A DNA stretch of 64,000 nt, taken from contig DFOT01000001.1 of assembly GCA_002376875.1 (NCBI GenBank), forward strand, positions 40,659-104,658, in the 5' to 3' direction. The translations under genes and the position numbers were made by a program. Below are positions 9,773-14,799 of this stretch, one piece after another. Every line of letters begins with the position of its first letter. The stretch's first letter is position 1. The notes beneath the pieces are model-generated. The model was not told the origin of the DNA and ran no database searches. It was given only the letters and a program-made list of their open reading frames with translations. This DNA is from Opitutia bacterium UBA3534 (lineage in GTDB: Bacteria; Verrucomicrobiota; Verrucomicrobiia; Opitutales; UBA3534).

Positions 9773-12700
9773 AGCCAAAACAACACTGCCTTCTCTTATT
9801 TCTTTTAACGCTATTTTTCTTGCCAGTAAAGCCTGTCTCTGGGGCGATTCCGTGGCAGATGGATGATTACTACTACTACGCACAGGGGGATGACCTTAGG
9901 GACCTTCTGCGTAATTTCTGTCAGGCTCAGGGGATCAACTCAGTTATCAGTGAGAAGGTCGAAGGCGAAGCGAGCGGATTCTTCCAAGGGATAGCGCCCA
10001 TGGATTTCCTTAATCAAATCACCAAGGCTTACGGGCTGATTTGGTTTTATGATGGGAATATCCTGTATATCGAGCCGTTTGATCAGATCGAGTCACGTGT
10101 TCTGCAAACTGAGTATGTAGAGGCAGTGACCATTTTGGAGGTTTTAGATACTTTGGGAATTGAAGGCTCTAACTTTTCAGTCCGTAGCTTGAAGAACCAA
10201 GGTGTAACTATCATTAGTGGTGCTCCACGGTTTGTGGTGATGGTTGAAGCGCTGATTGAGAAACTCGAGACCAATGAGTTTGCGCGTATGGGGCGTGAAG
10301 GTATTGAAGTCTTCCCACTTAAACACTCTTGGGCTTATGACTTGCGCTTTAACTACAGTACCAGCAATCAGTCAATCAGCACAACAGCGAGTGCTGCCAT
10401 AGACAGCAATACGGATGAGCTTATTATTCCTGGTGTGGCTACTTTGCTTAAGGGCCTCATGGACCAGAAGACAGAAAATGCTTTTGGTTTCGGGCTTAAG
10501 CGCCAAGCAAAGATGGATACCTTGGGAACACGCCTTGAGGCGTTAAAGTCTCGCGCGCGGATCAATCGTGAAGAGCGTATGGCGGCTGAGGATTATTCTT
10601 TGGGCAGTGTGAATGTAGACTTCTCCCCGAGTACGATGATCGAGGCAGATAAGCGCCTGAATGCTATTGTGATTAAGGACGTACGTAGCAAGATGGATAT
10701 GTACCGGGACTTGATTAATGCTTTGGATCAGCCTGTGCAGGTTATTTCTATTAGTGCTGCAATTGTAGATGTAGACAAAAACTACTCACGTGATTTGGGT
10801 ACGAAGTTTTTTAAGGTTAACAATAAAGATGGCTCTTGGTCTGGGAGTATTTCCCCGGATGGCAGTGCTAAGGGTGTCACTCAATTAACCAATGGCTTTA
10901 ATGCACAGGCACAATGGCCAGTGAGCCCTCTAAGCTTTTTATCCCAAGTCCAGGCTTTGGAGAAAGAGGGGAATGCAAACATCTTGTCACGCCCGTTCTT
11001 GTTGACGCTTGATAATGTGGAAGCTGTCTTGACGAAGGATGAAACTTTCTTCGTGAAGCTCGAGGGTAAGGACGATGTTGACTTAGCTAATGTCACTGTA
11101 GGTACCACCCTAAAGGTAATCCCTCATGTAATCGAAGAAGAGGATGAGGCACGCAAAATTAAGCTTTTGGTGACCGTTTCTGATGGAGAGCCTATCGAGG
11201 ATGAAGTCCTTAAGAACGTAGATGGCTTGCCACGTACACGTAAGAGTACGATTAATACTCAGGCAGTGATCCGGGAAGGGGAGAGTTTGTTGATTGGTGG
11301 TTATTTCCGCGAGGCTTTCCGGGATGCTAATAATGGAGTGCCTATTTTGCGCAGTATCCCTGTACTGGGGCAGCTTTTCCAAAGTAAGCTCAAGAAGAAT
11401 AGCACCATCGAGCGGATGTTCTTGATTACCCCGCGTGTGGTAGAACTGTCGAGTGATGATACCGGAGGGCTAGAGCCTGATTATGACCAGTACCTCAATT
11501 CTTGGAAAAAGCAGAAAGAAGCCATCGAGGCGTTAAAGGACGGTGAGAACACACGCGATGTCCTCGAAGGAAAGTCCTGGCACGGAGGGTTGCTCGATAG
11601 CTCAAGCCCTGCTAAAAAGAAAAAGACTGCTAAGAGGAAGAAGCTTGCTCATTTAGCTGAAGCAACGGCAGCGCCGGTGGCGACTCAAGTACAAGATGCA
11701 CCTTTTTTAGATGAACGTGTCTCGGCCCCATCAGAGCCTGTAGCGGTATTGCAAGAAGAGCCTGTAAGCTCAGAGACAGAAGAGTACTGGCAAGCTGATG
11801 ACGAGCCTGAGGCGGATGAGGCAGTTGCTAAAGTTAACCAAGCACCAGAACCTTTTGTAGTGCACCTTGAGAACCTAGGTGCCCCGGAGACACAGGAGCA
11901 GGCGGTTGTTCCAGTAGAACTTGAGGCCGCTCATACAAATGCTTTCAACACAGCTCCCAAGATCCAGGTGGACCCGCTAAAGCTAACGGCAGAGACTTTG
12001 TCAGCTTTATCCCGCCCCATGCACCCAAAGGCGGAGCCTAAAGCCCTTGTGGAAGCTGAGGTGTTTGAATCCCCAGATGCTTGGTCACAGGAGATTGCTG
12101 TGAGCGAGGTTGAAATCCCTGAGCTAACAGCCCCGATTGTGACGACACAGCGTACTTCATTTGTTTCTGATTGGAGTACTCCTGTAGGGCTAGAAGAGGA
12201 GCCCGAATTATTTGAAATTGAATTTGATATCCCTGAAGAGACTACTATCGCAGAAGTAGGGCAACTCGAAGGTAATGTAATTGAAGTTTTTGAAGTCCCT
12301 GAGGCATGGTCAGAGCAAGAGTCAGTATCTGAGGCATTGGTTGCAGCAGTTGAAAAACCCGAGCAACTTAACTTTGTTGCAGAGCCTGAGTCTTATGTGA
12401 CTGATGTCGTATTCGAGCCTGCAGGCTTGGAGGAAACGCCTGAGCTTTTTCAGGTAGCTTTGGATGCTCCTGTGTTTACCCCAGAGCCTTTAGTGACTCC
12501 TGCAGTGGAACAAATGCTTGAACAAGAATCTTCACCTCAGGTAGAAGAGGTTAACCAGCTTGATTTTACTCAAATAGAAGCGATCGAAACAAGTGCCTTA
12601 GAAGAAATGGGTACGCTTGAGCCTCTTGCTCATATTGACTTCCCTGAGGAAGTAGAGCGCCAGCCCGAAATTTCTTTAGCCCTAAGTGCAGTCGAGGAGG

Positions 12701-14799: not shown

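Follow-up and report, generated by a model that had tools for sequence, protein, structure and literature searches.

A type III secretin gene with a very large, low-complexity C-terminal extension in an uncultured Opitutales bacterium

We examined a 64,000-nucleotide (nt) stretch of DNA from Opitutia bacterium UBA3534 (contig DFOT01000001.1, positions 40,659 to 104,658 of the forward strand; hereafter the window) and found that its gene for SctC, the secretin of a type III secretion system (T3SS), continues for more than a thousand codons past the end of the secretin. This gene, which we call sctC-long, occupies one open reading frame (ORF) on the + strand at 9769-14799 (1,676 codons plus a stop in the ORF list) and encodes a product of 1,676 amino acids (aa) and 183 kDa. 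It is a genuine single gene and a clear member of the SctC family, and we have very little doubt that it carries a real, translated C-terminal extension. From the N-terminus, the product comprises a predicted Sec signal peptide, the secretin core, a helix (residues 572-590), a basic patch (residues 615-627), a 705-aa polyanion, and a 331-aa polyampholyte; its tail contains neither a transmembrane segment nor a cysteine. Taken as a whole, the account that we favor, in which a genuine SctC has gained a tail that is confined to this lineage, kept by selection, and active as a periplasmic tether or scaffold, seems to us evenly balanced between right and wrong.

The first 559 residues of the product are those of a T3SS secretin. 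They match TIGR02516, the equivalog model of the subunit that forms the outer-membrane ring of injectisomes, with 395.4 bits (cut-off 238), and the GspD and PilQ models, which describe the secretins of the type II secretion system (T2SS) and of type IV pili (T4P), scored far under their cut-offs for this product. Within the core, the N0 domain (residues 36-101, 9874-10071; this and all further parts of sctC-long lie on the + strand) scores 25.2 bits against PF21304, just below the cut-off of 27, and its WFYDG block is conserved in the alignment. The Secretin_N region (N1/N3, residues 180-323, 10306-10737) scores 62 bits against PF03958 (cut-off 28.2), and the pore domain (residues 396-559, 10954-11445) scores 118.2 bits against PF00263 (cut-off 27.5) with the full profile covered. 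Ahead of these domains, translation from the TTG at 9769 gives a predicted Sec-type signal peptide (MKPKQHCLLLFLLTLFFLPVKPVSG/AIPW, 9769-9843) with a hydrophobic peak at residues 7-27. The n-h-c signal-peptide pattern, as judged by inspection, arises only with this TTG, and the predicted signal peptide and the IPW motif align with those of homologues. The TTG overlaps the stop of an upstream CesT-family gene by 4 nt (TTGA), and the identical overlap occurs in the locus of the nearest relative (L004), an Opitutales metagenome-assembled genome (MAG). Public gene calls (P0001, P0134) begin at 9820 (TTG, 1,659 aa) or at an ATG 31 codons in (1,646 aa). Both of these starts lose the predicted signal peptide, and an exported secretin would be obtained only from the TTG at 9769.

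Beyond the end of the Secretin domain (residue 559, nt 11445), the frame stays open for 1,116 codons, a stop-free run with a chance of ~4e-27 at the regional base composition, and the other five frames across the tail region contain 37-104 stops. A codon-usage model built from 29 further ORFs in the window scored the sctC-long frame best in every 300-nt segment, and the log-likelihood was 0.42 for the tail as against 0.24 for the core. The initial annotation, made from the letters alone, had ended the secretin domains near nt 11450, had the same frame run on for ~3.3 kb through a short basic patch, and had read the whole as one sctC gene whose product bears a very large C-terminal appendage of low complexity. 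The Pfam boundary, the open frame, and the patch (AKKKKTAKRKKLA, residues 615-627) are as it described, and family matches, coding signal, and independent assemblies all bear out the single gene.

The window belongs to a Tara Oceans scaffold of 1.26 Mb, and the gene recurs in other assemblies. At 90% identity, its protein cluster has four members that differ only in the start codon chosen by the gene caller; they come from an ENA Tara assembly, from TARA_132_SRF_0.22-3, from an NCBI/JGI/Logan/ENA/GEM entry, and from another ENA assembly. An identical sctC-long is carried by L002, a Logan assembly of run ERR599142. A diverged strain is represented by contig ctg336975 of ERZ25074695 (L003), which differs from the window at ~8% of synonymous sites (synonymous divergence, dS, ~0.08). 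Codon alignment of the two genes revealed zero indels and zero stops over their whole length, the junction sequence is conserved, and the 1,046 low-complexity codons of the tail contain not one indel. Checking for a frameshift or fusion, as the initial annotation had advised, thus revealed no stop or frameshift in any assembly examined.

This same strain pair (window versus L003) allowed us to estimate selection from Nei-Gojobori counts. The ratio of non-synonymous to synonymous change (omega) is 0.008 for the secretin core (33 synonymous differences, 1 non-synonymous) and 0.150 for residues 631-1676 (53 synonymous, 28 non-synonymous; binomial p=3.7e-16 versus neutrality). The acidic and helical parts of the tail give similar values (0.146 and 0.161), and those of neighboring genes span 0.05-0.19. 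Because the tail has acquired no indel or stop in L003 and its omega falls within the range of its neighbors, we conclude that it is translated and constrained about as much as the chaperone and translocator genes of the locus.

The first part of the tail resembles what other SctC proteins carry at the same place. A helix at residues 572-590 (PDYDQYLNSWKKQKEAIEALK, 11482-11538) was the sole confident element (pLDDT, the predicted local distance difference test score, ~75) in a single-sequence AlphaFold2 (AF2) model of residues 561-1340; its position matches that of the homologues' short tails, and it is S-domain-like. In T3SS secretins, a short S domain at the C-terminus clamps adjacent subunits or docks a pilotin; sctC-long runs on past this point. 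The basic patch AKKKKTAKRKKLA (11611-11649) follows 58 residues past ITPRVV, where homologues usually stop. Basic C-termini are found in 14 of the 32 nearest database matches and in most of the 12 measured genome loci of Opitutia/Puniceicoccales type. The five closest homologues lack such a basic end. It is plausible, though no more than suggestive, that the ancestral SctC C-terminus lay near residue 630. The S-domain-like helix and the basic patch precede the appendage as retained parts, and its start is therefore probably near residue 630 rather than at 560. This arrangement suggests a gain, in this lineage only, of ~1,050 residues beyond the retained ancestral end. We also considered a programmed -1 frameshift at AAAAAGAAAAAG (11614-11625), which would release a canonical secretin of ~622 aa, and rejected it: the heptamer is imperfect, the downstream RNA is not more structured than shuffled sequence (z = +1.2), and the nearby TAA in the -1 frame is gone in the diverged strain.

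Past the junction lies a polyanionic segment that is predicted to be disordered (residues 641-1345, 11689-13803; 76.6 kDa, pI 4.05). It holds 25 basic and 164 acidic residues, for a net charge of -139 by residue count (-136 for the 641-1330 slice), and is composed of E 19%, A 13%, V 10%, L 9%, P 9%, and Q 6%. AF2 modeling of residues 561-1340 returned a pLDDT of <50 for 670 of the 780 residues (mean 40.9). Self-comparison revealed an internal duplication of a ~75-aa unit, with copies at residues 765-830 and 840-908 (VFE.P.AWS...GLEE.PELF; 12061-12492), whose self-similarity, scored at 60 and 58, is greater than in any shuffled sequence (maximum 53).

The polyanion is followed by a polyampholyte helical-repeat module that reaches the C-terminus (residues 1346-1676, 13804-14796) and consists, by repeat alignment, of six units of ~55 aa. 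Each unit begins with an N-cap box (S/T-P-E-E-like) and continues as a charged helix containing R-(L/I)-x-x-W-(R/K/H). Its Trp is invariant across the six units (W1381, W1442, W1497, W1552, W1605, W1668), the Leu/Ile is conserved, and the acidic motif DSFW follows three of the six. The self-similarity scores of these repeats (59-74) also lie above the shuffle maximum of 53. The module contains 58 basic and 61 acidic residues (charged fraction 0.36, net charge per residue -0.009), and its basic character is confined to the helix cores. A single-sequence AF2 model of residues 1311-1676 predicted six helices with pLDDT ~80-95 and no tertiary packing (predicted template modeling score, pTM, 0.20, and likewise ~0.2 for the model of residues 561-1340). 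They are helix 1 (residues 1367-1414, 13867-14010, pLDDT 88-93), which holds W1381; helix 2 (1429-1453, 14053-14127, pLDDT up to 85), which holds W1442; helix 3 (1490-1521, 14236-14331, pLDDT 91-94), with W1497 and the DSFW at 1519; helix 4 (1539-1579, 14383-14505, pLDDT 91-95), with W1552 and the DSFW at 1574; helix 5 (1584-1623, 14518-14637, pLDDT 88-95), with W1605; and helix 6 (1655-1675, 14731-14793, pLDDT 80-85), which bears W1668 and W1672 at the extreme C-terminus (...QWRKDWLNSL). All six are hydrophilic, with negative mean hydrophobicity and hydrophobic moments of 0.11-0.35, values on which we rejected the idea of membrane-binding amphipathic helices. Two descriptions in the initial annotation therefore need adjustment: its acidic stretch is present and rich in E, A, V, P, and Q (as well as L, at 9%) and spans ~705 residues (641-1345) rather than ~800, and its W-containing repeats are real and above the shuffle level, whereas the module that they form is a polyampholyte, basic in the helix cores only.

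Neither the ~75-aa duplication nor the W-helix repeats could be detected as tandem repeats in the DNA, and the protein repeats are therefore old. Judging from these self-matches, the tail has grown partly by internal duplication. A hidden Markov model (HMM) of the repeat found its six domains in the module and none elsewhere in the six-frame ORFs of the window or in 129 related loci, and tblastn of the tail against the window returned self matches only.

Nothing in the databases that we searched resembles the tail. An exhaustive phmmer search with residues 561-1676 against 1.84e9 representative proteins returned only the protein's own cluster. Pfam and NCBIfam place no family in this region, where Pfam matches at E<=10 were noise only (GH-E, DUF5805, RR_TM4-6), and no profile-detectable peptidoglycan-binding domain (AMIN, SPOR, LysM) appeared in Pfam or NCBIfam, even at E<=10. 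A search of the PDB with the tail gave no match. The six-unit repeat profile found nothing at E<=0.1 among 5.8e9 proteins, a search of low power that also missed the source protein, and a word-indexed search with the full protein was dominated by low-complexity words. The homology search with the tail alone and the structure prediction that had been suggested at the outset thus yielded no homologue and a mostly low-pLDDT chain with six helices.

The core, by contrast with the tail, has many relatives. Searching with residues 1-600 retrieved 180 SctC homologues, the best of them 43% identical and 560-665 aa long. The query's own cluster (P0001, 100% identical) was absent from this list, which might therefore have hidden close relatives with long tails, and the genome and metagenome scans did not return the window's own species. 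No intermediate relative emerged from the full-length search, the tail phmmer search, or the genome and metagenome scans, in which the best core identity was 43-44%. Named relatives are MAGs of Opitutales, Opitutia, and Puniceicoccales (Verrucomicrobiota). In the nearest of them, L004, SctC is 601 aa long and 44% identical, and DnaA is 66% identical to that of the window. Its gene order is CesT, the 601-aa sctC, and an unrelated 217-aa ORF that has no detectable similarity to the tail; that of L005 is CesT, a 625-aa sctC, an unrelated 163-aa ORF, and a homologue of the window's downstream CesT gene. The gene maps of L004 and L005 contain no separate tail gene. The initial annotation had raised the possibility that relatives encode the extension separately; they end soon after the secretin domain, and none has a separate gene for the tail.

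We compared tail lengths as the number of residues after the ITPR motif. The median was 51 aa among database homologues (n=96, maximum 457), 62 aa among genome loci (n=12, range 41-147), and 108 aa among metagenome loci (n=46, maximum 283), as against 1,119 aa in sctC-long. The gene is thus the length outlier among injectisome secretins that the initial annotation took it to be. Its further remark that no equivalent had been described holds for the literature, since the full text that we searched nowhere describes injectisome secretins with long C-terminal tails, and does not hold for sequence data, in which other SctC clades carry tails of 120-457 aa. Two of these are P/A/R/Q-rich (P0002, 457 aa; P0081, 294 aa), one is a Cys-rich tail of 317 aa (P0039), and one is an acidic tail of 121 aa with net charge -28 that ends E/A/P/V-rich like the window's (L095/L097). 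A separate metagenome clade of SctC has conserved tails of 84-283 aa made of extremely charged helices (charged fraction 0.5-0.6; L065-L068, L073, L075, L077, L085, L087, L091, L096, L099, L100, L103, L105, L108, L122, L128, L129). Each of these tails has one conserved Trp (e.g. LDEDKHEWKRVE), often with a second Trp near the very end, and those of L087 and L100 reach ~280 aa of charged helices with the conserved Trp.

We asked if the W-helix repeat is homologous to the tails of the charged-helix clade and rejected this relationship: hhalign gave a probability of 2%, the repeat HMM had no significant match there, and the Leu that precedes the Trp stands at W-3 in the window's repeat and at W-8 in the clade. 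No other long SctC tail is detectably homologous to that of sctC-long (by hmmsearch, and by hhalign against the charged-helix clade). At the level of sequence, the likeness to other charged Trp-helix tails is therefore thematic only. All of these long tails are attached at the same site and are of low complexity or highly charged; they are 2.4-9 times shorter than that of sctC-long, and none joins a ~700-aa polyanion to a six-fold helical repeat (P0002, P0039, P0081, L087, L100, L095/L097). Because other clades carry tails of 120-457 aa, some of them charged or acidic, the tail of sctC-long is, on these comparisons, the extreme of a variable region and not a unique invention. The recurrence of charged, Trp-containing tails in other SctC clades suggests that such tails are compatible with secretins and perhaps useful to them.

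Like the canonical SctC proteins YscC, InvG, and MxiD, sctC-long has a predicted signal peptide, N0, N1/N3, and secretin domains and a predicted short helix after ITPR, and its gene lies in a T3SS locus with translocators and chaperones. Unlike it, the canonical proteins end soon after the pore domain, as do the characterized members and the 96 homologues measured above.

What might such a tail do? In the solved T3SS secretins of Salmonella and Shigella, the C-terminal S domain wraps the barrel's outer wall at its periplasmic side (PMC10019453). Because a Sec signal peptide is inferred for sctC-long and the S domain of those structures lies outside the barrel on the periplasmic side, the tail should by analogy be periplasmic, with ~15 copies radiating from each outer-membrane ring. 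The earlier proposal of a tether on one face of the outer membrane would, on this analogy, narrow to the periplasmic face. Here the 705-residue polyanion would act as an expanded, flexible tether or entropic spacer whose reach would extend anywhere in the periplasm, and the unfolded acidic chain would be thin enough to pass through the peptidoglycan, which has a mesh size of ~2 nm (PMC9239104). The six charged Trp-helices at the end of the chain would be the best candidates for a binding module, with peptidoglycan, components of the inner-membrane ring, or the acidic chains of neighboring subunits as possible partners. The outcome would be an outer-membrane ring that is scaffolded or anchored in cis. 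We offer this combination of an acidic tether and a W-helix anchor that scaffolds the ring in cis tentatively, as an idea with a real chance of being right and a larger one of being wrong, and favor it because secretin scaffolding has precedents in the OutB extension and in AMIN and SPOR-like domains. In a bolder form, a built-in polyelectrolyte tether of about fifteen 700-residue chains ending in basic Trp-helices would dock to peptidoglycan, inner-membrane components, or the chains of neighbors and would replace pilotin or scaffold proteins or cluster injectisomes by charge; we regard this form as unlikely.

One precedent is GspB/OutB of the Dickeya T2SS, whose polyampholyte C-terminal extension cross-links to peptidoglycan and contains no known peptidoglycan-binding domain (PMC9239104). 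Both OutB and sctC-long (residues 1346-1676) thus feature a secretin-associated polyampholyte, which in OutB is periplasmic and serves to attach the secretin to the cell wall (PMC9239104). OutB is a separate T2SS protein that is anchored in the inner membrane and binds N0, whereas the polyampholyte of sctC-long is fused at the C-terminus of the T3SS secretin itself; the two share no sequence similarity, and contact with peptidoglycan in sctC-long is hypothetical. Secretins with an envelope-anchoring module of their own are also known, namely PilQ of T4P with its AMIN domains and Legionella LspD with a SPOR-like domain (PMC9239104). Those modules are folded, N-terminal, and recognizable by profile, whereas the appendage of sctC-long is C-terminal and mostly predicted to be disordered, with none detected. 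TolA and TonB likewise use long charged or proline-rich periplasmic linkers that lead from one envelope layer to a distal binding module. Both are anchored in the inner membrane and have no sequence or family match to sctC-long, so that the analogy is one of form only. An enlarged T3SS secretin is also found in chlamydiae, which belong with the Verrucomicrobiota to the Planctomycetes-Verrucomicrobia-Chlamydiae (PVC) group: CdsC is much longer than the proteobacterial proteins and is extended at its N-terminus. The secretins of chlamydiae have a T2SS-like origin (PMC3459982), and CdsC differs in this too from sctC-long, with its C-terminal tail and its match to the YscC-type equivalog. Other departures in the architecture of T3SS secretins are documented by Abby and Rocha (PMC3459982), who describe three independent recruitments and, in Rhizobiales, a split secretin.

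Several points weigh against a tether or scaffold. No experiment or homology ties the tail to any function, and the W-helix repeat is detectably homologous neither to the charged tails of other SctC clades nor to a known peptidoglycan-binding module. With moments of only 0.11-0.35, binding of the helices to a membrane surface is unlikely. Fifteen tails of 120 kDa per injectisome would be a heavy periplasmic load, and proteases could trim them. The placement in the periplasm is made by analogy with the Salmonella and Shigella structures. The estimate of selection comes from a single strain pair, and an omega of 0.15 could partly reflect staying soluble and harmless.

Of the competing explanations, the one that survives best is that the tail is a tolerated by-product, in which the stop near residue 630 was lost, low-complexity sequence was duplicated, and selection has acted only for solubility, translocation, and the avoidance of stops. 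This would account for a tail that has no homologue anywhere among 1.84e9 representatives, for its low-complexity composition and internal duplications, for the wide variation of SctC tails in length and chemistry among clades, as at a permissive site, and for a basic patch located where many relatives stop. Such a by-product would not be expected, however, to show an omega (0.15) equal to that of neighboring chaperone and translocator genes, to accumulate no indel in 1,046 low-complexity codons at dS ~0.08, or to keep an invariant Trp and conserved Leu/Ile over six old repeats whose DNA has diverged. Making and exporting ~120 kDa extra per subunit, ~15 times per machine, would moreover carry a real cost. 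On this evidence we consider a by-product rather unlikely, while giving it appreciable weight.

A second explanation is that sctC has fused to a once-separate gene, for an effector-like or accessory protein served by a CesT chaperone, and that the tail may still appear as its own product through internal initiation or proteolysis. The basic patch at a typical C-terminal position and the CesT chaperone gene 13 nt past the stop would fit a fusion, as would the disordered, repeat-rich composition that many T3SS substrates share; the downstream chaperone, moreover, is oriented unlike that of L005, which points to a rearrangement at the 3' end of sctC. Yet the databases searched hold no free-standing homologue of the tail, the gene contains no promoter-like or terminator-like excess, and both codon statistics and omega run smoothly over the junction. 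Past the junction we saw no in-frame start preceded by a ribosome-binding motif, though this test is weak, since such motifs precede only 9 of 43 genes in this genome. A homologue of the downstream CesT also lies beside a normal-length sctC in L005, and a tail that Sec exports at the end of a secretin would be unable to make use of an N-terminal T3SS signal. We find a fusion improbable.

Far less probable still is a tail that lies outside the cell or contacts the host, as an adhesin or through acidic Trp motifs that mimic those of a host. The injectisome is of a contact-dependent kind with translocators present, and the acidic Trp segments (EEYWQADDEPEADE, DSFW) loosely resemble eukaryotic short linear motifs. 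Against this, the S domain occupies the periplasmic side of the outer barrel wall in solved T3SS secretins (PMC10019453), and the tail has no transmembrane or beta-barrel-like element with which to cross the outer membrane. That the long ORF results from two genes wrongly joined in assembly or sequencing is effectively refuted. Its short A runs (AAAAAGAAAAAG, 11614-11625) could give rise to indel errors, yet the ORF is common to at least four independent assemblies or samples, it and its junction are kept in a strain that differs at ~8% of synonymous sites, and the coding signal is unbroken over the junction.

The neighborhood of sctC-long is that of a T3SS locus, with a tetratricopeptide repeat (TPR) chaperone of class-II type, an SseC-like translocator, and two CesT genes. 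The first CesT-family gene (9317-9772, + strand; PF05932, 49 bits) is the one whose stop overlaps the sctC start. A homologue lies on the sctC strand in ~38 of 49 related genome loci (L004-L052), mostly Opitutia/Puniceicoccales MAGs, and in L004 and L005, the two loci with gene maps read, it is directly 5' of sctC. It is odd that a Sec-exported secretin should have a dedicated chaperone-like partner beside it. A strong terminator-like hairpin found by consensus scan (9206-9239, + strand; 13-bp stem followed by a T run) separates the translocator genes from the CesT-sctC unit. The second CesT-family gene (14813-15262, - strand; PF05932, 88 bits) is convergent with sctC-long. Because a homologue lies 3' of the normal-length sctC in L005, it is on this comparison an ancestral neighbor and not linked to the tail. 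The stops of the two genes are 13 nt apart (14799-14813) with no terminator between them, and transcripts of the two strands must therefore overlap.

None of the genes for the core apparatus (sctV, N, R, S, T, and J) is in the 64-kb window. The initial annotation had proposed a changed pilotin dependence as one possible effect of the tail; we saw no pilotin-like lipoprotein in the locus. Three small ORFs without a family match are found 5' of the TPR chaperone gene (5026-6413). One encodes a basic protein of 120 aa that has a signal peptide, another a charged helical protein of 109 aa, and another a protein of 169 aa that begins MSNISNVGG. Their products are possible T3SS substrates or components of the needle or tip, and none resembles a lipoprotein pilotin. 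A gene at 8191-9105 encodes the putative second translocator (304 aa), which differs from its L003 counterpart (1196-2110) with a dS of 0.226; because this value stands above those of neighboring genes (0.006-0.10), it suggests a history of recombination or a mosaic origin for the T3SS locus. Beside the CesT-sctC pair of L004, a gene at 831-2708 (- strand) encodes a 625-aa protein with a CX5R motif (CKSGKDRTS), which may be a phosphoinositide or protein phosphatase effector.

Elsewhere in the window, dnaA has a gene for a family-B DNA polymerase ~1.5 kb away on one side and a gene for an SNF2-family helicase on the other (32849-35026, - strand; 36555-37985, - strand; 38756-41236, + strand). 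Because these two genes flank dnaA, the window is probably near the chromosomal origin region. The host organism is uncultured. One cluster member (P0133) comes from TARA_132_SRF_0.22-3, a 0.22-3 μm surface fraction, so that an injectisome-bearing organism was recovered in the free-living size class.

Secretins are usually assembled and anchored by separate helpers, such as pilotins, scaffolds of the GspA/B type, and peptidoglycan-binding domains. Among PVC-type lineages and metagenomic lineages of gut or rumen, SctC proteins with variable charged tails are widespread. If the tail of sctC-long is functional, as purifying selection suggests, the SctC C-terminus would be a docking site that can evolve to take very large disordered modules, a long polyanion could be exported and tolerated in the periplasm at ~15 copies per machine, and envelope scaffolding could be encoded in cis. 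Should the tether reading prove true, sctC-long would be the first known injectisome secretin with a built-in disordered envelope scaffold.

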